Shown: positions 1 through 27,138 of the stretch, piece by piece
Numbering within the stretch: the first letter of the stretch is position 1
Layout of the letters: every line of letters starts with the position of its first letter
Assembly: GCA_019058315.1 (NCBI GenBank)
Contig: JAHPZH010000002.1
Coordinates: 704,001-768,000 of the forward strand
DNA: 64,000 nucleotides
From: Candidatus Helarchaeota archaeon
GTDB lineage: Archaea; Asgardarchaeota; Lokiarchaeia; Helarchaeales; RDOG01
Direction of reading: 5' to 3'
The notes under the pieces: generated by a model
Told to the model about the DNA's origin: nothing
The model's database searches: none
The model's input: the letters and a program-made list of their open reading frames with translations, nothing else
Position numbers and translations under genes: made by a program

Positions 1-354
1 AACATCATTTTCAAAATTCCTAAATAAGGACATATTTCCACTATATTTTTCTATTTCATTTTGGTATTGCTTTAAAAAACGGTCTTTAAGTTCTTTTAAA
101 ATTAAATTAATAAATTTCTCATGTTTCTTCTCTTTTGTTAAAATTACAAAAATTAAATCACTTTCTTCTTCAAAAATAAAAGTAGTCGGATCTAAGTGTA
201 TCCTCTTAATTTCCTCACCACGTTCTGATTTAGCAAACATATGAAATGCTGACAAAAATCCAGATATTAGGCCAAAATCTGTCTCCTCTTTTTCTTTCTG
301 CCAGTTATAAAGAGGAACTCCCGAAGTATTAAGTATTAAAAATTGGTTAATCAT
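1..354 (-). CDS. Longin-domain protein (runs off window edge; missing from ORF track)
   Basis: Manual translation from ATG at 354 is open to position 1: MINQFLILNTSGVPLYNWQ...DFGLISGFLSAFHMFA...LIFVILT...LKELKDRF...YSGNMSLF. This fits the Asgard longin pattern (hhh-N-x-S-G-x-P-L-Y, L-I-S-G-F-L-S-A). Confidence 0.8.
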   Translation of the reverse strand, partial: MINQFLILNTSGVPLYNWQKEKEETDFGLISGFLSAFHMFAKSERGEEIKRIHLDPTTFIFEEESDLIFVILTKEKKHEKFINLILKELKDRFLKQYQNEIEKYSGNMSLFRNFENDV

Positions 355-2391: not shown

Positions 2392-3222
2392 TTATTTTAG
2401 GTTATTCTTTAACTGTACTTTTTTTAATTTTAAATCTTTAGAATGTGCAACACATGCTTTTACGCCTTTCTTATAAATTTTTTGATCATTTTCTGTAAGC
2501 CATTTTAAACTTAGATCCAACTTTTCTAGTTTTGAGAGATTTTCCAAACCTTGAATTATAGTTATATCGTTGGTCTTAAGCGATAATTCCTTTAATTGAT
2601 GAAGGTTTTCTAATCCTTCAATTTTTTTTATCGCATTGCTGTAAAGGTTTAAAATTTCTAATTGTTTGAGATTTTCCAGTCCCTCAATTTTTTTAATTCG
2701 ATTTCCCGCAAGTGACAAATAATCTAATTGAGTAAGGTTATTCAATCCCTCAATTTTATTAATATTATTCCATCCAAGATTTAAATATTGTAATTTGGTA
2801 AGTGTTTCTAATCCTTCTATTTGAGTTATATCATTTAAGTTGAGGTTTAAATGCTCCAATTGAGATAATGTATTTAGGTTCTCTATTTTCCTTATTCTAT
2901 TTTCATCAAGAAGTAGTTGTTTTAACTGTTTAAGATTTTCTAATCCTTCTATCTTCTCAATTTTATTACATCCAAAACTTAAAGCTTGTAATTGAGAAAG
3001 ACAATTTAAGCCATTAATTTTAGAAATCTCGTTTCTATCAAATCCTATTGCTGTTAAATTAGAAAGATTATCTAATCCCTCTATCGTTTTCAAATTTTGA
3101 TCTGCTAAAATCAGACCTACAACTTGTCCATTCTCAATTATATAATCGTCTTTTTCTAAATTATATTCTTTTATAAGATGATTTAACGCTAATTCTTCAG
3201 GTTTTGATTTAATTTCACTCAT
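2392..3222 (-). CDS. Leucine-rich repeat protein (SDS22-like)
   Basis: 22-aa repeats LxxLxLxxNxIxKIEGLENL; N-cap IENGQVVGL. Confidence 0.95.
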   Translation of the reverse strand: MSEIKSKPEELALNHLIKEYNLEKDDYIIENGQVVGLILADQNLKTIEGLDNLSNLTAIGFDRNEISKINGLNCLSQLQALSFGCNKIEKIEGLENLKQLKQLLLDENRIRKIENLNTLSQLEHLNLNLNDITQIEGLETLTKLQYLNLGWNNINKIEGLNNLTQLDYLSLAGNRIKKIEGLENLKQLEILNLYSNAIKKIEGLENLHQLKELSLKTNDITIIQGLENLSKLEKLDLSLKWLTENDQKIYKKGVKACVAHSKDLKLKKVQLKNNLK

Positions 3223-3251
3223 ATAACCTCATCATTCAATAGAATTTTGGA

Positions 3252-4415
3252 TTAAGATTTATATTGGGGTAAATATACCACTTGAACATCACGATTTTCC
3301 ATCTCTTGAATGGCTTTCTTATTTTCTTCATCCTCAAGGTTTATATAATTATCGTATAATTCGACACTCTTTAATTTTGTAAGGTTTTCTAAGCCTTCAA
3401 TTTTCGAGATTTTATTTGAATCCAGATATAGTGTCTCTAATTCTGTGAGATTATCTAAACCTTCTATCTTTAAAATTCTATTAGACATTAAACTCAAAAT
3501 TTTTAAATTTACTAAATTTTCTAATCCCTCAATCTTCTCTATTTGATTTAATTGTATATTAAGGTATTCCAGGTTCGTTAACGCTTCAAGCCCTTCTATT
3601 TTTTTAATTTTATTTGTATCAAGGTATAATTTTTTTAAAGTTGTTAAAGTTTCCAAACCTGATATTTTTGGTAACCAACAATCTGAAAAACTCAATTCTT
3701 CCAAATTCTTTAAATGTCCAATATTTTCTATAGTTCCTAAATTGCATTCAGAAATAACCAATTTTTTTAGGTTAATTAAATTATCCAGACCTTTTATTCC
3801 TTCAATATTCCTCCGCCGTGATGTTAACCATAGTTCTTCGAGGTTAGTTAAAGCATCCAATCCTTCGATAGTAGAAATGTTATTATCTGATAATTCGAGA
3901 ATTTTAAGGTTTTTTAAGGATGATAAATTTTCTATCTTTTCTATTTGATTTTCTCTTAGATTAAGTGACTCTAAATTCGTAAGATGCTCTAATCCTTCTA
4001 TTTTTTTTAGATAAACTCCCTCTGAACCACAACCTTGTAAATTTAGTATTTTTAAATTTTTTAAATTATCAAGACCTTGAATTTTTTTAATCTTTGTGTA
4101 TTGCAAATTTAAGGATTCTAGGTTTTCCAAAGCTTCTAATCCCTTTATTTCTGAAAGATCAAAATTTTCATAAAGGTTAAGATATCGAAGACTCGTTAAT
4201 TTTGAAAGAAGTGTCATATCATTAAAATTAGCTGCTCTTAATCTCAAACCAGCTACTTTTCCATCTTCTATGTATATAGCCAAATCTTCAGATGATTTTC
4301 TCTTAAACATTACATAATTATCAAATATTTTAAACCATTCTTCTGTCTTTTTAGTATGTTTAATTATTAAATCAAGATTTTTTCTTTCTTTATCCTCTAG
4401 GTCATTTAAGCTCAT
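3252..4415 (-). CDS. Leucine-rich repeat protein (SDS22-like)
   Basis: About 13 LRRs; GAGGTGA Shine-Dalgarno upstream; paralog of 5540-6703. Confidence 0.95.
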   Translation of the reverse strand: MSLNDLEDKERKNLDLIIKHTKKTEEWFKIFDNYVMFKRKSSEDLAIYIEDGKVAGLRLRAANFNDMTLLSKLTSLRYLNLYENFDLSEIKGLEALENLESLNLQYTKIKKIQGLDNLKNLKILNLQGCGSEGVYLKKIEGLEHLTNLESLNLRENQIEKIENLSSLKNLKILELSDNNISTIEGLDALTNLEELWLTSRRRNIEGIKGLDNLINLKKLVISECNLGTIENIGHLKNLEELSFSDCWLPKISGLETLTTLKKLYLDTNKIKKIEGLEALTNLEYLNIQLNQIEKIEGLENLVNLKILSLMSNRILKIEGLDNLTELETLYLDSNKISKIEGLENLTKLKSVELYDNYINLEDEENKKAIQEMENRDVQVVYLPQYKS

Positions 4416-4503
4416 GAAAAATCACCTCTTGTTGAAATTTTATAATTATATCTGTCTATTAATTCCTTGGGAGTAAATATACTACTTTATCTTCTTTTAT
4501 AAG

Positions 4504-5493
4504 TTAATCATCATCATTATCATAGACAAATACTTGACGATTTCTTAATTTTATTATCAATTTTTTTGATTTAGAGTCTAAATTCTGAATATTGCGTAAT
4601 CTTAATTCACGTAATAATGATAAATTAATAATTGATTTAGGTATAGTTGATATTTCATTACTAAATTCTAAGTTTTCCAGCGAGGATATATTACATATTG
4701 ATTCAGGGAAAGAGGTAAAAAGATTATGATTTAAATTGAGGTATTTAAGAGATTTTAAATTTCTTATTGACTCGGGGAGGTTTCTTAATTGATTATAACT
4801 CAGATGAACAATTTCCAAACTTGAAAGATTGCCAAATGATTCTGGAATTGTCTTTATTTGATTATCATTTAAATCTAGGTACTTAAGTAAAATTAAATTA
4901 CCAATTGAATCAGGAATCATAGATATATATTGATTGTTACCCAAAAGCAAATATCCAAGCATAATTAATTTATCCATTGAATCAGGGAGACTCTTTATCT
5001 GATTTTCAGATATATTTAAGTCTCTCAATTTTGTAAGATTACCAATTGATTCTGGTACAGTTGTTAATAAATTGGTTGCTAAACTTAACTCCTCTAGAGA
5101 TGTTAATTTCGAAATAAATTCTGGATATTCCGATAATCCATTAGCTGCTACATTTAATTCTTTTAAATTTATTAATTCTCCAATAATTTCTTGTAAAGGG
5201 TTTAATTCATTACCACCTAATGATAATTTTTCAAGTAATACAAGATTAGCTAATGAATCTGGTAATTCTGTCAACTTATTAGACCCCAAATCCAGTTCAT
5301 TTAGCATTTTTAGGTTACCAATTGAATCGGGAAGAGTTTCTAATTCATTATAATTTAAAAAAAGCTTCTTAATTAATTTAAGATTCTCCAAACCTTTTAC
5401 TTCATTTAAATCACTTATCTTCTTTTCTTTTAAGTTTAAAACCCCATTTTCTACATAAAATCTTTCTCCATTATATTCCACAAATTCATTCAA
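4504..5493 (-). CDS. Leucine-rich repeat protein (23-aa LPxSIGNL type)
   Basis: Repeats LxxLPDSIGNLxxLxxLxLxxN. Confidence 0.95.
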   Translation of the reverse strand: MNEFVEYNGERFYVENGVLNLKEKKISDLNEVKGLENLKLIKKLFLNYNELETLPDSIGNLKMLNELDLGSNKLTELPDSLANLVLLEKLSLGGNELNPLQEIIGELINLKELNVAANGLSEYPEFISKLTSLEELSLATNLLTTVPESIGNLTKLRDLNISENQIKSLPDSMDKLIMLGYLLLGNNQYISMIPDSIGNLILLKYLDLNDNQIKTIPESFGNLSSLEIVHLSYNQLRNLPESIRNLKSLKYLNLNHNLFTSFPESICNISSLENLEFSNEISTIPKSIINLSLLRELRLRNIQNLDSKSKKLIIKLRNRQVFVYDNDDD

Positions 5494-5539
5494 ATTGTGA
5501 GTTCACCTATGTATTTTTTCTTTATTATTTCTTTATAGA

Positions 5540-6703
5540 CTAGACACCTTCCCAATTAGGTTTTCTTAAAGGTTCATATATTACCTGAACTCCACGTTCT
5601 TCTAATATTTTTATTGCGTTTTTTGTTTCTTCCTCTTCAATTTTGAGATTATTTTCTTGTATCTCTAGTTCTTTTAATTTAGAGAGATGCTCTATGCCTT
5701 CTATTTTTTCAATATTATTACTATCTAATGACAGTGAATTCAAATTCGAAAGGTTTTCCAGCCCCTCAATCTTTTTAATTCGATTACCTCCGAGACCTAA
5801 ATGTTCTACATTTATTAGATTACCTAATCCCTCAATTTTTTCAATTATATTTGTTCCCAAATTGAGAATTTTTAACTTGGTTAATGTTTCAAGTCCTTCT
5901 ATCTTCTCTATTATATTAGCACCAAGATGAATATTTTTTAAATTTTTAAGGGTTTTTAAACTTGGAATACGTGTTAACTGACAATTATAAAGACCTAATT
6001 CTTCCAAACTTGGTAAATTTTCAATTTTATCTATATTGCAATAGAAATTGGATTCAAAGACTAACTTCTTGAGATTTATTAATGAATCAAGCCCCTCAAA
6101 TTCTTTAAATTTATTTGAATTTAACCATAATTCTTCGAGGTTTTTTAAATCCTCTAAATTTTCAATTTTTTCAATTTCATTATGACCCAATTCAAGTTTC
6201 TTTAAATTTTGAAGATGAGCCAAATTCTCAATTTTTTGTATGTTATTACTCGCAAGACTGAGAAATTCCAAGTTTCGGAGATTTTCCAAGTTTTTTATTT
6301 TTTCTATGGAGCAAGTTTCTAAATTTAATGATTTTAATTTTACTAAACTGTCTAAACCTTTTATTTCTGTAATTTTTCTGTTTGTACTCAAATTTAACGA
6401 TTCTAAATTTGATAGATTCGCTAAACCTTCAATTTCAGTCATTCTATTCTCGTGTAGGTCTAGATATCTTAGACTTGATAGATTTGAAAGTAAAGACATA
6501 TCATTCAACATACCCTCACGAATTCGCAACCCAACAATTTTATTGTTCTCAATATATAATGCTGAATAGTCACTAGTGTATTTCTCATCAATCTCACTAT
6601 AATTATCGTATATTTGAAACCAATCCTCTTGTTTTTCGGCATTTTTTATAATCTTATCAAAAATTTCCTTTTGTTCTTTCACTAAATCAATTGGCATTTC
6701 CAA
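5540..6703 (-). CDS. Leucine-rich repeat protein (SDS22-like)
   Basis: About 13 LRRs; N- and C-caps homologous to 3252-4415. Confidence 0.95.
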   Translation of the reverse strand: MEMPIDLVKEQKEIFDKIIKNAEKQEDWFQIYDNYSEIDEKYTSDYSALYIENNKIVGLRIREGMLNDMSLLSNLSSLRYLDLHENRMTEIEGLANLSNLESLNLSTNRKITEIKGLDSLVKLKSLNLETCSIEKIKNLENLRNLEFLSLASNNIQKIENLAHLQNLKKLELGHNEIEKIENLEDLKNLEELWLNSNKFKEFEGLDSLINLKKLVFESNFYCNIDKIENLPSLEELGLYNCQLTRIPSLKTLKNLKNIHLGANIIEKIEGLETLTKLKILNLGTNIIEKIEGLGNLINVEHLGLGGNRIKKIEGLENLSNLNSLSLDSNNIEKIEGIEHLSKLKELEIQENNLKIEEEETKNAIKILEERGVQVIYEPLRKPNWEGV

Positions 6704-9700: not shown

Positions 9701-10147
9701 TTATGATTGAATTTTATCCCATTTTTCACATTCTACATATAAATCCATCCTTTGTCCAGAAGGCTTTATTTTTAGCTCTGAAATAATCATATCCCATAAT
9801 TGTTTGATATTTTTTGATTCGTAATCTAATATTTTTCCACATTTTGGACATATAATGTTTATATGAGGTGAAATATTTGGGTCGAATCTTGAGCGGTTTT
9901 CAGCAAAATTTAGCTCTTGGACTAGTCCTAAATCACTAAGTAGATGCAATGTTTTATATACCGTTGCTAAGCTGATGGTGGGATTATTTTTTATTACTTC
10001 ATGATAAATCTCTTCAGCAGTGGGATGATCCTTACTTGAAAGGACAAATTCACAAATTTTTAAACGTTGGGGTGTTACTTTATATCCCTTTTCATGAAAT
10101 TTTGAAATAAGTTCTTTCCTACTTATCGATTTTTCCAAAAAATTCAA
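9701..10147 (-). CDS. Fur/PerR family transcriptional regulator
   Basis: TPQR, HPTAEEIY, SLATVYKTL, HINIICPKCG motifs; divergent from katG. Confidence 0.92.
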   Translation of the reverse strand: MNFLEKSISRKELISKFHEKGYKVTPQRLKICEFVLSSKDHPTAEEIYHEVIKNNPTISLATVYKTLHLLSDLGLVQELNFAENRSRFDPNISPHINIICPKCGKILDYESKNIKQLWDMIISELKIKPSGQRMDLYVECEKWDKIQS

Positions 10148-10355: not shown

Positions 10356-12551
<2,196 letters not shown>

Positions 12552-14388: not shown

Positions 14389-15438
14389 TTGCTTGATGTT
14401 TGGAAGTTATTTGGGTTAGGATTTACTTTTATATTATCCAATTATTTAATTATTGTATTTTTTTATTTCATAAAAAAGATATATGGAAGTAAAAAATCAA
14501 TAAAAGAAATTTTACCTTTTTTAGGAATAGCCTTTTTGTTCTTATTTGGTGGTATATCTTATATTTTTGCTAATTTTTTTGATTATTTTCAATGGCAATA
14601 TGATCTAAAAATATTATTCTACTTTAGACTTCATTCTATTCTCTATTTCTCAAGTATCGCTTCTTGTATCTTTGTGTATGAATATGTTATTAAAAAGACA
14701 AAATATCTTCTAACAACTTATATTGTTATTGGTTTAATAGCAAATTTCATTGTTTACAGATATGAAGATTTAAATTTCTTATTAAACTTTTTTTTAGGCT
14801 CTGCTGTACCAATTCTATTGATTCTTCAATATGTGGTATTCGTTAGACCAACATCTGGAATGTTAAAACGCCGAATGAATTTTAGTCTAGTTGGTTTAAT
14901 CTGTGCTGGAGTTGGCAGTGCATTAAGGAATTTTTTTATAAATGAATTGTTGGGCTATTATATATTTTCAATAGGCACATCGATAGTAATTATCGGATTG
15001 TTATTAATGGCTTATGGATTTTCGGCATTTTCTACCCTAACTGATTTAAATTGGAAAGATAAATTACATCAACTTTATGTGGTTACGGAAGATGGAATTT
15101 GTCTTTATGCATATTCCTTTGAAAATAATCTTCCTATAGCTAATTCAAACCTACTTGCAGCAGGTTTTTCAGGTATACAAAAATTATTATCTGAAATATT
15201 AAAAACAAAAGAAGCTCTGAGGATAATTGAATATAAGCATCTAAATATTCTTGTTGATTTTAGACCAAATATTGTAGTTTTATTAGTTATTACTGAACAT
15301 AGTGCATTTCTATTTTATAAATTGAAAGAATTCGCTGAAAAATTTTCCAATTTTTTTAAGGATTTATTGATAAATTGGCAAGGGAATACAGAAATATTTA
15401 CACCTACCAAATCTCTTATTCAGAGCACATTTGAATGA
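14389..15438 (+). CDS. 7TM membrane protein with C-terminal longin domain (copy 1)
   Basis: Seven hydrophobic segments, then LYVVTEDGICLYAYSF...LLAAGFSGIQKLLSEI...F...F...WQGNTEIF longin pattern. Confidence 0.8.
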   Translation: MLDVWKLFGLGFTFILSNYLIIVFFYFIKKIYGSKKSIKEILPFLGIAFLFLFGGISYIFANFFDYFQWQYDLKILFYFRLHSILYFSSIASCIFVYEYVIKKTKYLLTTYIVIGLIANFIVYRYEDLNFLLNFFLGSAVPILLILQYVVFVRPTSGMLKRRMNFSLVGLICAGVGSALRNFFINELLGYYIFSIGTSIVIIGLLLMAYGFSAFSTLTDLNWKDKLHQLYVVTEDGICLYAYSFENNLPIANSNLLAAGFSGIQKLLSEILKTKEALRIIEYKHLNILVDFRPNIVVLLVITEHSAFLFYKLKEFAEKFSNFFKDLLINWQGNTEIFTPTKSLIQSTFE

Positions 15439-15490
15439 AATTTATGATTATACATCAAATCTTATTGAATTACATTAAAAATGAATCAAA

Positions 15491-16558
15491 ATGATATATC
15501 AATTAGATTTTTGGAAAATGATGAGTTTAGGAATAACTTTTATCCTAATTAGCAATACAATATTCTTATCTCATTATTTTATAAATAAAATATACCAAAC
15601 TAAGAAATTTAAATCTGAAATATTGCCTTTTTACGGAATAACTTTTTTATTTTTGTTTGGAAGTGTCTCATATATTTTCGCAATTATATTTGATTTTTTT
15701 CATTGGTATTATGATCACTCAATATTAATTTATTTCAGATTACACCTCATATTTTATGTTCTAAGTGTAGCCTCATGTATTTTCGTATATGAGAACGTTA
15801 CTAAGAAAACAAAATATCTTCTAACAATTTATATGATTGGTGGATTGGTAATAAATTTCTTTATATTTTCATATAAAGGTTTAAATTTATTTTCTAATTT
15901 CACATTTGGATTAGGTTTGCTAATTTTATTGATTCTTCAATATGTTGTATTCGTTAGACCAACTTCTGGGATGTTAAAACGTCGGATGTATAGTGCTTTA
16001 ATTGGTTTAATTATTATTGGATTTGGAAGTTTTTTAAGAAATCCTACTATAAATGAAGCGTTTGGCTATTACCTTTTTTCAATGGGCACTTTACTAGTAA
16101 ATTTTGGAGTATTATTAATGGGATTCGGATTTTCCGCTTTTTCAACATTTACTGATCTTAATTGGAAGGAAAAATTACATGAGATTTTTATATTAACAAA
16201 AGATGGACTTCTTTGCTATGCATACTCATTTGATGTTGATCAGAAAATGAATGGCTCTGAACTACTTGCAGCTGGTTTTTCAAGTATACAAATTTTCCTT
16301 TCTGAAATATTAAAGACAAAAGATGATTTGCAAATTATAGAATATAAAAATTTAAATGTTATTCTTGAATTAAAAGGGAATATTGTTTTTGTTTTAGTCA
16401 TAAAAGAAAAAAGCTCATTTCTAAAACACAAATTAGGAGAATTTTCTCAAAAATTTTGCGAAATATTTACAGATTCATTGAAGAATTGGAATGGAGATAT
16501 GGAAATATTTTATCCTACCAAAAATTTAATTCAAAATATATTTGAATTAAATAAATAA
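15491..16558 (+). CDS. 7TM membrane protein with C-terminal longin domain (copy 2)
   Basis: Clear paralog of its neighbours with the same architecture. Confidence 0.8.
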   Translation: MIYQLDFWKMMSLGITFILISNTIFLSHYFINKIYQTKKFKSEILPFYGITFLFLFGSVSYIFAIIFDFFHWYYDHSILIYFRLHLIFYVLSVASCIFVYENVTKKTKYLLTIYMIGGLVINFFIFSYKGLNLFSNFTFGLGLLILLILQYVVFVRPTSGMLKRRMYSALIGLIIIGFGSFLRNPTINEAFGYYLFSMGTLLVNFGVLLMGFGFSAFSTFTDLNWKEKLHEIFILTKDGLLCYAYSFDVDQKMNGSELLAAGFSSIQIFLSEILKTKDDLQIIEYKNLNVILELKGNIVFVLVIKEKSSFLKHKLGEFSQKFCEIFTDSLKNWNGDMEIFYPTKNLIQNIFELNK

Positions 16559-16667
16559 TTTCATAGATTAAACTAAAAGCTACCAAATCTCTTATTCAGA
16601 GCATATTTGAATGAAATTTATGATTATAAATCAAAATCCTATTGAATTACATTAAAAATGAATCAAA

Positions 16668-17735
16668 ATGATATATCAATTAGATTTTTGGAAAATGATG
16701 GGTTTAGGAATAACCTTTATCCTAATTAGTAATGCTATATTTTTATTTTATTATTTCATAAGTAAAATATACCATAGTAAAGAATATAAATCTGAGATTT
16801 TGCCCTTTTACGGAATAACTCTTTTATTTTTGTTTGGTGGTCTCTCATATATTTCTGCAATTATATTTGATTTTTTTCATTGGTATTATAATTTAACAAT
16901 ATTAATCTATTACAGATTAAACTTTATATTTTATGTTCTGTGTGTAGCTTCATGTATTTTTGTATATGAAAACGTTATTAAGAAGACAAAATATCTTTTA
17001 ACAATATACATGATTGGTGTGTTGATAATTAATTTCTTCATAGGAACATTTGAAGCTTTAGTCTTATTCGCTAATTTCACTTTTGGGTTTGCTTTAATAA
17101 TTTTATTAATTCTTCAATATGTTGTATTCGTTAGACCAACTTCTGGGATGTTAAAACGTCGGATGTATAGTAGTTTAGTTGGTTTAATCATTATTGGCCT
17201 TGGAAATTTTTTTAGAAATCCTTCCATAAATGAAACGATTGGTTATTATATTTTTTCATTAGGCACTTTACTAATAAATATTGGAATATTATTAATGGGA
17301 TTCGGATTTTCTGCTTTTTCAACATTTACTGATCTTAATTGGAAGGAAAAACTTCATCAGATTTTTATACTAACAAAAGATGGACTTCTTCTCTACGCTT
17401 ATTCATTTGATGTTAATCAAACAATTGATGACTCTGAATTACGTGCAGCTGGTATTTCAAGTGTCCGAATTTTCCTTTCTGAAATATTAAAAACAGAGGA
17501 TGATTTACAAATTATAGAATATAAAAATTTGAATGTTATTCTTGAATTAAGAGATATTGTTGTCTTTGCTTTAGTCATAAAAGAAAAAAGCTCATTTCTA
17601 AAACACAAATTAGGAGAATTTTCCCAAAAATTTTGCGAAATATTTAGAGATTCATTGAAAAATTGGAATGGAGATATGGAAATATTTTATCCTGCAAAAA
17701 ATTTAATTCAAGATATATTTGAATTAGATAAATGA
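16668..17735 (+). CDS. 7TM membrane protein with C-terminal longin domain (copy 3)
   Basis: Same length (355 aa) as copy 2 and highly similar to it at DNA level. Confidence 0.8.
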   Translation: MIYQLDFWKMMGLGITFILISNAIFLFYYFISKIYHSKEYKSEILPFYGITLLFLFGGLSYISAIIFDFFHWYYNLTILIYYRLNFIFYVLCVASCIFVYENVIKKTKYLLTIYMIGVLIINFFIGTFEALVLFANFTFGFALIILLILQYVVFVRPTSGMLKRRMYSSLVGLIIIGLGNFFRNPSINETIGYYIFSLGTLLINIGILLMGFGFSAFSTFTDLNWKEKLHQIFILTKDGLLLYAYSFDVNQTIDDSELRAAGISSVRIFLSEILKTEDDLQIIEYKNLNVILELRDIVVFALVIKEKSSFLKHKLGEFSQKFCEIFRDSLKNWNGDMEIFYPAKNLIQDIFELDK

Positions 17736-20345: not shown

Positions 20346-21278
20346 TTAAATAGTTAAAGAATTTATCTTTTTAGTTATTCGCTCCACCTCTTTTTCTAAC
20401 TTATCCAACTTTAGTAATGTAATTCCTTCTTTATTCATTTCTGTTCTTAAAAATTCTAATCTCTTAATAAGCTTATTTATTTCTTGATCTTTACAATATT
20501 CAATTACCGCTTTTACTCCCTTTTTATAAATAGCTTTATCATTTTTCGTTAAATTTTTTGAGGTTATTTTTAATTTCTTTATATTAATAAGATATTTTAA
20601 ACCTTCTAATTCTTTTATCGGATTGAATTCAAGATCTAATATTCCTAATTGAGATAATCCTTTCAACCCCTCAATTCTTTTAATATCATTATGATTAAGA
20701 CTTAATTCTTTCAATTTAGATAGATGATCTATCCCCTCTATTTTCTTGATTTTATTAAAATAAAGATATAAAATTTCTAATCGAGTGAGTTTTTCCAATC
20801 CCTCAATTTTTTGAATATTATTATTGAAAAGATATAAACTCTTTAGCTGTTTGAGATTTTCTAATCCCTCGATTTTCGAGATTTTGTTATATCCAATATT
20901 TAATACTCTTAATTCGGATAATTTTTCTAATTCCTCTATTTTTTTAATCTGATTATCATAAATTCTTAATTCTTGTAATTGAGAAAGGTTTCCTAATCCC
21001 TCAATTTTTTTAATTTTATTAAAATTTAAAGTTAATTTCTTCAATTGATATAGGTTTTCTAATCCTTCAATTTTAGTGATTTGATTGCCAGACAGCTCCA
21101 ATAATAATAAATGAGAAAATTTCTCTAAACCTTTAATTTTTGTAATTCCTCTCCTACCCAAATCTAGAAAGATCAAATTACCATTTTTATTGATTTTAAA
21201 TTTAGTTTTTCCTAATCTATATAATGTCTTTAATTCATCAAGCGCTTCCATTTCTAATGATTTGCCAGTTGAGGACAT
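20346..21278 (-). CDS. Leucine-rich repeat protein with C-terminal coiled coil
   Basis: SDS22-like LRRs; YKKGVKAVIEY cap. Confidence 0.93.
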   Translation of the reverse strand: MSSTGKSLEMEALDELKTLYRLGKTKFKINKNGNLIFLDLGRRGITKIKGLEKFSHLLLLELSGNQITKIEGLENLYQLKKLTLNFNKIKKIEGLGNLSQLQELRIYDNQIKKIEELEKLSELRVLNIGYNKISKIEGLENLKQLKSLYLFNNNIQKIEGLEKLTRLEILYLYFNKIKKIEGIDHLSKLKELSLNHNDIKRIEGLKGLSQLGILDLEFNPIKELEGLKYLINIKKLKITSKNLTKNDKAIYKKGVKAVIEYCKDQEINKLIKRLEFLRTEMNKEGITLLKLDKLEKEVERITKKINSLTI

Positions 21279-24455: not shown

Positions 24456-25355
24456 TTGGTTTTAATGGAAAAAATTAATGAAATTGAAGATGAACAAGAA
24501 AAAAAAGCCATTATTGAGTTATGGAATAATTTTAACTGCTGGGATGCTCCATTGAATCAGGTGGGATTTGAAATCAACGAGAAGGGACAAATAAAATTAT
24601 TGAGACTAAATAATAGAAAAATAAAAAAGATTCCTAACTTTATTGCTAATTTTTCAGAGCTTAAATATTTAGATTTATATTATAATAAAATCCGTAAAAT
24701 AGAAATACCAAATAATCTTAAGAAATTGAAGCGATTATATCTTGGAGGAAATCTCATTACTAAAATCGATGGCCTAGATAATTTTTCACAGTTGAATGAA
24801 TTAGCTATTTATGGAAATCGAATTTCAAAGATTCAAAATATCAATCATTTATCTTCCTTATTATCATTAAATCTAAATGGTAATAATATTACACAGATTG
24901 AAGGTTTAGATAATCTTATTCATTTACAAGATTTAAACCTGAATTCTAATAAAATTACAAAGATTAGTGGGTTAAATAATCTTTTTAATTTAAAGAGATT
25001 ATTATTGGATAATAATAGAATTACAAAAATCCAAGGATTAGAAAATCTAACTCAATTACAAGAAATTAGTCTAACAAATAACGAGATTATAAAAATCGAA
25101 GGGATAGAGGAACTTGATAACTTGGAAAGTATTTCACTTTTAGGAAATCCACTTTCAGAAATAGATAAGAAAGTCTATCATAAGGGTTTAATTGCTTTAA
25201 AAAAATTTTCTAGACAAAGGAAAATAGATGATTGCATAAAAAGAATAAAAGAAATACAAGAAATATTGAATTTGGGTAAGCTAAAATTAGATAATTATAA
25301 CATTTTAAATCAAGAACTTGAAGAACTACAGAAAAAAATTAAAGATTTCAAATAA
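24456..25355 (+). CDS. Leucine-rich repeat protein with C-terminal coiled coil
   Basis: SDS22-like LRRs ending GNPLSEIDKKVYHKGLIAL. Confidence 0.93.
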   Translation: MVLMEKINEIEDEQEKKAIIELWNNFNCWDAPLNQVGFEINEKGQIKLLRLNNRKIKKIPNFIANFSELKYLDLYYNKIRKIEIPNNLKKLKRLYLGGNLITKIDGLDNFSQLNELAIYGNRISKIQNINHLSSLLSLNLNGNNITQIEGLDNLIHLQDLNLNSNKITKISGLNNLFNLKRLLLDNNRITKIQGLENLTQLQEISLTNNEIIKIEGIEELDNLESISLLGNPLSEIDKKVYHKGLIALKKFSRQRKIDDCIKRIKEIQEILNLGKLKLDNYNILNQELEELQKKIKDFK

Positions 25356-25492: not shown

Positions 25493-26011
25493 ATGACAAT
25501 ATACAGATTTAAAATAGTTATTGTAGGAGATTATGGAGTAGGTAAAACATCATTAATAAATCAGTATGTTACCCAAAAATTTAAAGGAAGTTATATTCCC
25601 ACTTTGGGAGTACAATTCACTAAAATAAGTTTAAAAGCAAGCGATGATGAGGTTGAATTAATCCTTTGGGATATAGCTGGTCAAGATAGCTTTTTTAAAA
25701 TTAGACAGAGATTTTATGATAATACTCAAGGATTCATAGTTGTATACGATATTACAAGAAAATCCTCTTTGGAAAATATTAAAAATTGGTATGATGATGT
25801 CACGGCGCACACTGGGAAATTACCTTGTCTTTTACTTGGCAATAAATCTGACTTAACAGAAAGAAGAGTTATTAATAAGGAAGATGTAAAGGAAATTATT
25901 GAAAAACATGAAATGAATTTTATTAACTTTTTTGAAACCTCAGCAAAAACTGGAGAAAATGTGAAAGAAAGTTTTGAATCAATAGCTAAAAACATATTAA
26001 AAAATATATAA
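25493..26011 (+). CDS. Rab-like small GTPase (Ras superfamily)
   Basis: G1 GDYGVGKT, G2 YIPTLG, G3 WDIAGQ, G4 NKSD, G5 ETSAK; no prenylation tail. Confidence 0.97.
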   Translation: MTIYRFKIVIVGDYGVGKTSLINQYVTQKFKGSYIPTLGVQFTKISLKASDDEVELILWDIAGQDSFFKIRQRFYDNTQGFIVVYDITRKSSLENIKNWYDDVTAHTGKLPCLLLGNKSDLTERRVINKEDVKEIIEKHEMNFINFFETSAKTGENVKESFESIAKNILKNI

Positions 26012-26037: not shown

Positions 26038-27138
26038 GTGTATGAAATAAATAAACCGTATTTTTTAAGCATAATAAACCCTTCAGGAATATGTTTATTC
26101 TTATATTGCTTTAAAGAAGATTTTGATGTAACAGAATTTCAACTTTTTAGTGGTTTTATAACAGCCATTATTAAATTCTCAGAAGAATTAAATGAAAAAA
26201 TTGGGTATAGCAAGGAGGATGGACGAGTTCCTTCCATTCCTCTTAATTTAAATTTTGAAATTCTGATCTCATATAATGAACCCCTAATTGGTTGTCTTGT
26301 GGCGGAAAGAAAAGATTATGATGAGGATATGAAAATTTTTCTTAATGATGTATTAGATGAATTTCTAGAAATTAATGGTGAAAATCTCAAAGATTTTAAT
26401 GGTGATATTGGGACATTCGATCGTTTTAAAGATGAAATCGAAAGAATTTTCAGAAAAAGAAGCATTTTTTCTTATCAAATCCCAAAAATGAGAACAGACC
26501 AAACCAAGAGGATATCGCTGAAAGAAAATTTCTTAGATTTAATTGATTTGATAGATGGTAAGAGAGACATTAAACAGATTTCTCAAATTTTAAAAAAGGA
26601 AACAGAAAAAATAAAAGACATGATTTCACGATTATTATGGCTTGAAATGATAAATTTAAGTGCTAAAGTCTACGAAGATGATGTTTTTGAACCAAGAAAA
26701 GACTTATTTCAATTAATAAGAAGCAGAGAAATTGATCCAGAAAAGAGAAAAGAAAAAGAAAAACATTTAGAGGAAAAAGCATCCGAATTTGATTTATTAA
26801 ATGCCATTGATGGATTCAAAACTGTTCTTGAACTTGATAATGACTTTCCTAACTTATCTTCTGATGAGATAAAACGAATTTTATCATATTATCTCTCTCA
26901 AGGATCTTATCTTGAGAAAATTGAGCTGTACCCACAATTAATCAATATTAATGATAAACTTATTGAGAATTTATCCGATGAAAGCCTTGCACTATGTTAT
27001 TCATTGGAAAATATTTGTGAAGGAGATCTATCATTAGCAGAAATTTCAGCAAGAATTGGTATGCCAATTAATGAAATAAAAAAAATGTTAAATTTTATGG
27101 GAGATCATGTAACATATATTAAAAAATCTGTTAAATAA
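26038..27138 (+). CDS. Longin plus triple winged-helix protein, NPRL2-like
   Basis: N-terminal longin ([27 protein letters not shown]), then three wHTH-like units ([32 protein letters not shown]). Confidence 0.75.
   Translation: [366 protein letters not shown]

Follow-up and report, generated by a model that had tools for sequence, protein, structure and literature searches.

A tandem trio of seven-transmembrane-longin fusion genes in a Helarchaeota genome, members of a large unannotated family with a possible role at small GTPases

In the tri-longin guanine nucleotide exchange factors (GEFs) of Rab GTPases, Mon1-Ccz1, Fuzzy-Inturned (CPLANE) and HPS1-HPS4 (BLOC-3), the two first longin domains pair and form the Rab-binding site. 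Other described systems include MglA-MglB and the Streptomyces "conservon", which comprises the membrane sensor CvnA, the Roadblock protein CvnB, CvnC and the GTPase CvnD. In LYCHOS (GPR155)-GATOR1 and SLC38A9-Ragulator, lysosomal polytopic sensors are combined with longin/roadblock platforms that control the Rag GTPases. Asgard archaea have around a hundred Ras-superfamily GTPases, along with dozens of proteins of the longin or roadblock type. Here, a locus of three tandem paralogous genes (P1, P2 and P3), each encoding a seven-transmembrane (7TM) bundle fused to a C-terminal longin domain, was analyzed in a 64,000-nucleotide stretch of a Candidatus Helarchaeota archaeon genome (GCA_019058315.1, contig JAHPZH010000002.1, positions 704,001 to 768,000 of the forward strand), referred to below as the window.

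In a 2016 review, 41 longin-like domains, some of them fused to GTPases, were listed for Lokiarchaeum, and CAAX motifs and prenyltransferases were tabulated as absent from it (PMC4917890). Since the lipid-anchoring machinery is tabulated as absent, where and how Asgard GTPases meet membranes is an open question of eukaryogenesis. The reading favored here, with a probability of roughly 0.5, is that P1-P3 are functional members of a large, Asgard-specific and unannotated 7TM-longin family, in which the bundle would be an input or dock and the longin domain a platform for small GTPases. In such a mechanism, the membrane bundle would act as the input, or at least as a membrane dock. The bundle would be rigidly coupled to the longin domain and pass on its state by way of the conserved face turned to the cytoplasm (loops 3-4 and 5-6 with the final part of transmembrane helix (TM) 7) and a tryptophan-containing linker. 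The longin platform would then bind, recruit or regulate a small GTPase of the Ras superfamily, or a longin/roadblock partner that does so.

The three genes were intact open reading frames (ORFs) on one strand (+), together occupying window positions 14389-17735:

14389-15438, + strand: P1 7TM-longin gene, 349 amino acids, TTG start; the slowly evolving copy
15491-16558, + strand: P2 7TM-longin gene, 355 amino acids; the copy used for structure modelling
16668-17735, + strand: P3 7TM-longin gene, 355 amino acids; the sister of P2

The P2 and P3 proteins were 81% identical, with a DNA identity of 88% in their coding regions, and P1 was about 60% identical to either protein. A GAGGT sequence lies 6 nt upstream of the TTG start of P1, the P1 ortholog in the related assembly L001 (89% identity) also starts with TTG, and P1 spans the full family profile (E 2.8e-109). 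The assembly was checked with contig pieces of the probable source run, which matched P1-, P2- and P3-specific parts with 0 mismatches; none of these pieces spans the array.

The structure of P2 was modelled with AlphaFold2 on 86 full-length homologues, and the model reached a predicted local distance difference test score (pLDDT) of 90.7 and a predicted template modelling score (pTM) of 0.85. Seven helices were present in the model (residues 7-36, 41-69, 75-104, 110-122, 128-155, 160-182 and 193-215), and the seven segments obtained by hydropathy agreed with this count. In the 86 homologues, the mean number of Lys plus Arg residues was 2.9-3.6 in loops 1-2, 3-4 and 5-6 and 0.2-0.6 in the remaining loops. 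Because positive charge concentrates in those three loops, the N-terminus was placed outside and the C-terminal tail in the cytoplasm, which is a topology of the type found in G-protein-coupled receptors (GPCRs). Regions of the bundle are:

15509-16135, + strand: seven-helix bundle of P2, N-terminus outside, residues 7-215, from the model helices and loop charges
14398-15024 (P1) and 16686-17312 (P3), + strand: equivalent bundle regions, corresponding to P2 residues 7-215

In an exhaustive structural comparison, the bundle was matched best by the ADGRL3 7TM domain (Z 16.4, root-mean-square deviation (rmsd) 3.4, 202 residues). Designed GPCR-like folds were also matched, class C and class A GPCRs scored Z 12-14, and GPR156, GABA-B and mGlu5 scored Z 13.5-14.3. 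Among other 7TM folds, alkaline ceramidase reached Z 14.9, the adiponectin receptor 13.1 and rhodopsins 12-12.7. Since helical models commonly reach a Z of about 14 with this tool, "GPCR-shaped" is used here as a description of the modelled fold and not as evidence of homology. In keeping with this, the proposal of the initial annotation that the system is analogous to GPCRs was acceptable as an analogy of shape, but homology to GPCRs was unsupported, with no sequence match.

The tail of P2 (residues 229-355, 127 residues) had the order strand-strand-helix-strand-strand-strand-helix in the model, with strands at 229-236 and 241-246, a helix at 257-274, strands at 282-285, 288-295 and 298-304, and a final helix at 309-331. 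The longin regions are:

16175-16555, + strand: cytoplasmic longin domain of P2, residues 229-355, from secondary-structure order and fold matches
15064-15435 (P1) and 17352-17732 (P3), + strand: equivalent longin regions, corresponding to P2 residues 229-355

The tail was matched best by Fuzzy, a CPLANE chain, whose first longin domain gave Z 14.1 (rmsd 2.8, 123 residues). The TRAPP core chain 3cue_C (Z 12.6, rmsd 2.4, 120 residues), the VAMP7 longin domain (Z 12.5) and Mon1-Ccz1 (Z 12.2) were also matched, and the matches to solved longin domains covered 116-124 residues. Among the listed domain-level structural matches of the tail, all were longin domains; MglB was among the weaker Foldseek matches. 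The order of elements typical of Roadblock/LC7 was not found in the tail, which opens with two strands (after a 4-residue helix turn) and ends with a 23-residue helix. At the sequence level, P2 matched Pfam Fuz_longin_1 (PF19036) with 20.7 bits (E 5e-4), below the gathering cut-off of 26.1, while P1 and P3 gave no match. The same family was matched at E <= 0.01, below the cut-off, in 4 of the 86 homologues, Sybindin was matched below threshold in 2 of the 86, and weak profile matches to Trs23 and TRAPPC1 were obtained; apart from Fuz_longin_1 and Sybindin, no signal recurred in the sequence libraries. The modelled tail is assignable to the longin domains at the fold level only, and not to Fuz_longin_1. 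The description given in the initial annotation, three paralogs with seven TM helices and a C-terminal longin domain, agreed with these results: the ORFs were intact, seven helices were obtained both by hydropathy and in the AlphaFold2 model, and the tail had the strand and helix order of a longin domain and superposed on solved ones with Z 12.2-14.1.

The distribution of conservation along the protein was then compared between the three copies and across the family. Three stretches, given with their P2 residues, stood out:

15923-15988, + strand: invariant block, residues 145-166, at the TM5 end that faces the cytoplasm and in loop 5-6
16130-16174, + strand: conserved stretch from the last part of TM7 into the longin linker, residues 214-228, including Trp225
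15860-15895, + strand: most divergent stretch, comprising the outer end of TM4, outer loop 2 and the outer start of TM5, residues 124-135

The first two correspond to segments that had been described as nearly invariant, and both were identical in the three copies. The 22-residue identical run of the first block, comparing P1 with P2 or P3, was longer than expected by chance (permutation P = 0.001-0.002), and its core motif was kept in an 18-sequence subfamily. The block at the end of TM7 was the most conserved stretch of the family, and its Trp225 was found in 98% of the 86 homologues; Glu101, at the inner end of TM3, was present in 90% of the sequences family-wide. Since both blocks contain synonymous differences (6 between P1 and P2 in the first, several in the second), they are kept by purifying selection, and gene conversion was discarded as their cause.

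Furthermore, the cytoplasmic halves of the helices and the inner loops were more conserved than the outer ones, both in 18 sequences (2.95 vs 2.41 bits, P = 2.8e-6) and in 86 sequences (1.50 vs 1.28 bits, P = 0.002). Conservation peaked in loop 3-4 (intracellular loop 2, ICL2), loop 5-6 (ICL3) and the TM7-longin linker, and was lowest at residues 73-90 and 120-136. Of the conserved coupling surface proposed in the initial annotation, the conservation of the cytoplasmic face was supported.

Ratios of nonsynonymous to synonymous substitution rates (dN/dS), calculated by the Nei-Gojobori method, were 0.30 for P2 vs P3, 0.16 for P1 vs its L001 ortholog and 0.27-0.50 for P2 or P3 vs the orthologs of L001 and L003, and accordingly lay between 0.16 and 0.50 across all close comparisons. 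No segment with adequate counts had a dN/dS above 1. The divergence of the TM4-TM5 region between the "recent duplicates", a relative term given the dS of 0.31 between P2 and P3, had been read in the initial annotation as a diversifying ligand pocket. The differing residues were correctly reported, and residues 124-135 were the densest cluster of P2/P3 differences (7 of 12 residues), but the clustering was not beyond chance when differences were shuffled (P = 0.26 in 12-residue windows and 0.10 in 20-residue windows). This stretch also ranked among the least conserved of the family. The differences between P2 and P3 avoided conserved sites, with 6 observed vs 13.4 expected in the most conserved fifth, and the differing sites had a lower mean family conservation (P = 0.017). 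Positive selection at TM4-TM5 was unsupported (segment dN/dS 0.07-0.37), and the idea of a diversifying pocket was not sustained, as the differences prefer sites that vary in the whole family.

An exhaustive profile-free search returned 524 cluster representatives (E <= 0.001), mostly of about 350 amino acids and aligned end to end. In the source genome, 41 full-length copies were found, distributed over 29 loci, with six genes in one array and four in another; the 18-sequence alignment, used as a profile on the genome contigs, recovered 7 loci only. Five other Asgard genomes carried from 0 to about 17 full-length copies, and the family profile matched 145 of 151 sampled Asgard genomes, often via the longin part alone. 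No family model was found in Pfam or NCBIfam. The named homologues were annotated as "hypothetical protein", the closest ones coming from metagenome-assembled genomes (MAGs) labelled Hod-, Hel- and Promethearchaeota, and the predicted-structure clusters of the same shape were all "hypothetical" and all archaeal. In the searchable literature, a fusion of longin and seven-transmembrane parts in Asgard archaea was not described, an unnamed entry in the asCOG tables (Liu et al.) remaining possible; a 2026 preprint deals with Asgard "7TM proteins" and GPCR-like clusters without a link to longin domains.

The two large arrays of the source genome, one of six genes (C5:1284350-1291644) and one of four (C11:127611-132965), consist of two old, diverged gene types, and the trio was separate in the tree from these strongly diverged two-gene units. 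The same longin type was present on 75 other ORFs of the genome, from single-domain proteins of 120 amino acids to proteins of 1100 amino acids and larger. Three metagenomic relatives (P0155, P0156 and P0143) carried the same longin tail on membrane domains matching Pfam MFS_1; the tail is therefore common to different membrane modules. An Asgard-type 7TM-longin gene was also found on contig DATKTP010000006.1, labelled as a bacterial "Candidatus Deferrimicrobium" MAG, with a GTPase-like ORF of 322 amino acids 182 bp upstream; this contig was probably mis-binned.

In the genome, this longin type was associated with small GTPase genes, in the window as well as elsewhere. Two genes of the window, outside the 7TM-longin locus, form the nearest example:

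25493-26011, + strand: nearest small GTPase gene (Ras family; Pfam Ras E 2.4e-51), 7.8 kb downstream of the trio
26038-27138, + strand: soluble 366-amino-acid protein with an N-terminal longin domain of the same type, 27 bp after the GTPase gene

The longin domain of the soluble protein comprises its first 140 residues; it matched the family profile (E 7.2e-12, profile positions 228-348) and the tail of P2 (BLASTP, 27% identity, E 7e-5). A paralogous GTPase-longin pair was seen at C1:522008/C1:523201, and the two GTPases were sisters in the tree.

The genome has 105 small GTPases. Adjacency was quantified against 1000 placements. Of 62 loci where non-7TM ORFs carry this longin type, 10 had a small GTPase gene no more than 300 bp away vs 3.3 expected (P < 0.001), and those shorter than 450 amino acids were adjacent to a GTPase in 9 of 39 cases vs 1.3 expected (P < 0.001). 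Three more ORFs carried the longin type fused to a GTPase domain. Soluble proteins of this kind, adjacent or fused to a GTPase, are exemplified at C3:142046-144130, C11:576632-577630 and C5:553629-555673. These observations clearly tied this longin type to small GTPases, by adjacency and fusion, in soluble proteins. For the 7TM-longin loci of the source genome, a GTPase was found within 300 bp at 4 of 29 vs 1.3 expected (P = 0.037). Four Rab-like GTPases located at the two large 7TM-longin arrays, beside or next to them, formed one clade (support 99). A grouping of the window GTPase with the GTPase located between the two closest paralogs on C10 (support 90, FastTree) was loose and was set aside as too weak for use.

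Several results weigh against a GTPase platform with a sensing bundle in P1-P3. No GTPase gene adjoins the trio, the nearest being separated from it by 7.8 kb with several genes on both strands, and none was found at the orthologous loci of L001 (8 kb upstream and 0.6 kb downstream scanned) and L003 (8 kb downstream). Among 24 loci from other assemblies, scanned for up to 9-10 kb per side where the contig allowed, only 2 had a GTPase within about 1 kb. When the distance was widened, the 7TM-longin loci showed weak enrichment only (P = 0.12 for 1 kb and 0.17 for 5 kb). A fused 7TM-longin-GTPase form was found neither among the longer relatives nor when longer proteins were searched, the latter result being weak evidence. 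On the side of the bundle, the GPCR-like Z of 16.4 barely exceeds the level that helical bundles reach without being related, and scores of 12-15 were also given by the folds of ceramidase, the adiponectin receptor and rhodopsins. With Foldseek, no PDB entry was matched by the P2 model at E <= 0.001. Moreover, the bundle has no extracellular domain and its outer loops are short, so that nothing indicates a ligand. A look for RNA data on this stretch returned none. Binding of GTPases by the tails of P1-P3, ligand sensing by their bundles, pairing of their tails and any activity as a GEF or GTPase-activating protein (GAP) are predictions.

A more ambitious version of the favored reading was considered rather unlikely. 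It would make of these proteins a receptor-GEF system of an undescribed kind, in which a ligand- or state-gated 7TM bundle, with longin domains that are probably homo- or heterodimeric as in Mon1/Ccz1, would directly recruit and switch lipid-free Asgard GTPases at the membrane, and the 41 paralogs would constitute a chemosensory-like repertoire.

The leading alternative, still an unlikely one, is that the bundle senses nothing and passively anchors the longin platform and its partners (GTPases, longin/roadblock proteins), holding them at the membrane constantly. A simple anchor would be compatible with the short outer loops, the missing extracellular domain and the low conservation within the bundle, and the occurrence of the same tail on MFS-type membrane domains and on large soluble proteins speaks in its favor. 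Weak constraint would also explain the variability of the outer face as well as ligand diversification does. Nevertheless, seven helices far exceed the needs of an anchor, and the position of the most conserved residues, on the inner face of the bundle and in the linker, suggests a specific coupling of bundle and longin domain. Likewise, 41 paralogs per genome with variable outer faces are the pattern of a receptor family.

It is less probable, and was judged improbable, that the longin domain does not act on GTPases at all and is a regulatory or dimerisation module of a protein whose own activity resides in the bundle, which would handle lipids or act as a channel or transporter. The alpha/beta regulatory domains, a wide group that includes longin-like folds, have many roles (PMC4917890). 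The relatives with the same tail on MFS transporter-like domains, the lack of an adjoining GTPase gene at the trio, and the Z scores of 13-15 of alkaline ceramidase and adiponectin receptor against the bundle point in the same direction. The bundle, however, showed no conserved His/Asp metal site of the kind found in CREST/PAQR-type hydrolases, and His did not exceed 8% in any TM column, which disfavors an identity as a metal-dependent hydrolase of the ceramidase or adiponectin receptor type. A retinal protein is disfavored by TM7, where the conserved Lys that forms the retinal Schiff base in microbial rhodopsins was absent, the Lys-rich columns sitting at loop edges. The adjacency and fusion of the same longin type to small GTPases also argue against a role unrelated to them.

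Two further explanations were considered very improbable. True homologues of eukaryotic GPCRs, signalling via heterotrimeric G proteins, are suggested by the best bundle matches (adhesion and class C GPCR 7TM domains, Z 13.5-16.4) and by the inner end of TM3, where R, Y or K comes after an acidic residue. Against this, the Z scores are close to the helical-bundle background, and no sequence-level match to any GPCR family was obtained: none of the 86 members matched a GPCR family in Pfam, and one GPCR chain appeared at E 0.25 in the PDB profile search. The Pro motif of GPCRs was not recovered either, as the four most Pro-rich TM columns (richest 30%) included none from TM6 or TM7, and the fused output is a longin domain and not a G-protein-coupling tail. 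Among prokaryotic 7TM receptors with fused outputs, 7TMR-DISM_7TM was matched by 1 of the 86 members (E 0.0011), and a language-model atlas search with the bundle returned only noise-level scores, among them a neighbor cluster (score 0.81) with HisKA_7TM on 10% of its members. As for redundant, decaying duplicates without function, the end branches of P2 and P3, 2-3 times longer than those of the single-copy orthologs, and their dN/dS of 0.3-0.5, above the 0.16 of P1, would be expected, but all three ORFs are intact with dN/dS well under 1, the differences avoid family-conserved sites (the 6 vs 13.4 given above) and the spacer with a putative promoter is conserved.

The history of the trio could be partly traced through one additional feature:

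16580-16667, + strand: spacer before P3, 88 nt; duplicates 15404-15490, which comprises the final ~33 nt of P1 and the spacer between P1 and P2

The close relative L001 has two copies only, between the same flanks, an M20 peptidase gene and a gene for a 137-amino-acid protein. In the tree, P2 and P3 were sisters (Shimodaira-Hasegawa-like approximate likelihood ratio test (SH-aLRT) support 98) and fell, together with the single-copy "B" genes of L001 and L003, into one clade (99), and P1 paired with the "A" copy of L001 (100). The duplications were placed in order because of this synteny and tree. The trio arose through tandem duplication in place: close relatives already have a pair of P1 and the P2 type, and P3 (or P2) was added in this lineage by a duplication of ~1177 bp. 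The spacer before P3 marks the boundary of that unit. The two spacer copies were ~94% identical vs 88% for the coding nucleotides, a likeness that points to constraint on a promoter region or to gene conversion at this site.

The contig that contains the window is 1.4 Mb long and belongs to an Asgard genome of 5.8 Mb, and the locus region is AT-rich (G+C content ~0.25), as is the remaining window. The neighbors of the trio are a peptidase gene, the gene for the 137-amino-acid protein mentioned above, a tetratricopeptide repeat (TPR) protein and leucine-rich repeat (LRR) proteins. At least 6 genes in the intervals 2392-6703, 20346-21278 and 24456-25355 had leucine-rich repeats as their only Pfam matches above the curated cut-offs, so that an LRR expansion surrounds the trio. 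At the start of the window (1-354, minus strand) lies a truncated ORF (~377 amino acids in the genome) with the same longin type (profile E 1e-11). Additionally, a 727-amino-acid ORF at 10368-12551 had sequence features that suggest a catalase-peroxidase (KatG-like). Its G+C content was ~0.50 vs ~0.26 for the window, it adjoins a gene for a FUR-family regulator (9701-10147, minus strand), and it looks like a recent bacterial transfer.

The family provides concrete, clonable candidates for the missing link between GTPases and membranes in Asgard archaea and for the inputs of these GTPases. If the predicted binding is true, P1-P3 would represent an archaeal coupling of receptor to small GTPase in one polypeptide; if the receptor-GEF reading is true, they might be a forerunner of the eukaryotic membrane identity that is set by longin-domain GEFs. 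Even without GTPase binding, the family is among the larger unannotated expansions of Asgard membrane proteins and needs a family model.

Compared with known systems, the bundles of P1-P3 resemble the 7TM domains of eukaryotic GPCRs (adhesion class B2 and class C) in topology and helix arrangement, and both groups are large paralog families in which the outer face varies and the inner face is conserved. GPCRs differ in acting on heterotrimeric G proteins, whereas the 7TM-longin proteins have a fused longin domain and share neither sequence homology nor motifs with them. The tail of P2 has the longin fold in common with the TRAPP core subunits Bet5/TRAPPC1 and Trs23/TRAPPC4 (Pfam Sybindin), which, unlike P1-P3, are small, soluble and part of a multi-subunit GEF; no TRAPP-like partners were seen at the trio locus, and no search was aimed at them.

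The logic of LYCHOS-GATOR1 and SLC38A9-Ragulator, from a polytopic sensor to a longin platform, is similar, and MFS-type domains with the same longin tail occur among the relatives of P1-P3. In those systems, however, sensor and longin complex are made up of different proteins, and a Rag-type partner is not linked to the trio locus. MglA-MglB and the conservon are like the proposed arrangement of membrane sensor, Roadblock/longin adaptor and small GTPase; they use a helix-first Roadblock domain on separate proteins, whereas the tail of P1-P3 begins with strands, ends with a long helix and is fused to the membrane part. Finally, by its matches to Fuzzy and Mon1-Ccz1, the tail resembles the first longin domain of the tri-longin Rab GEFs, which also include HPS1-HPS4. 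These are soluble proteins with three longin domains that are recruited peripherally to membranes, whereas each of P1-P3 has one longin domain, joined to a 7TM bundle that is integral to the membrane.

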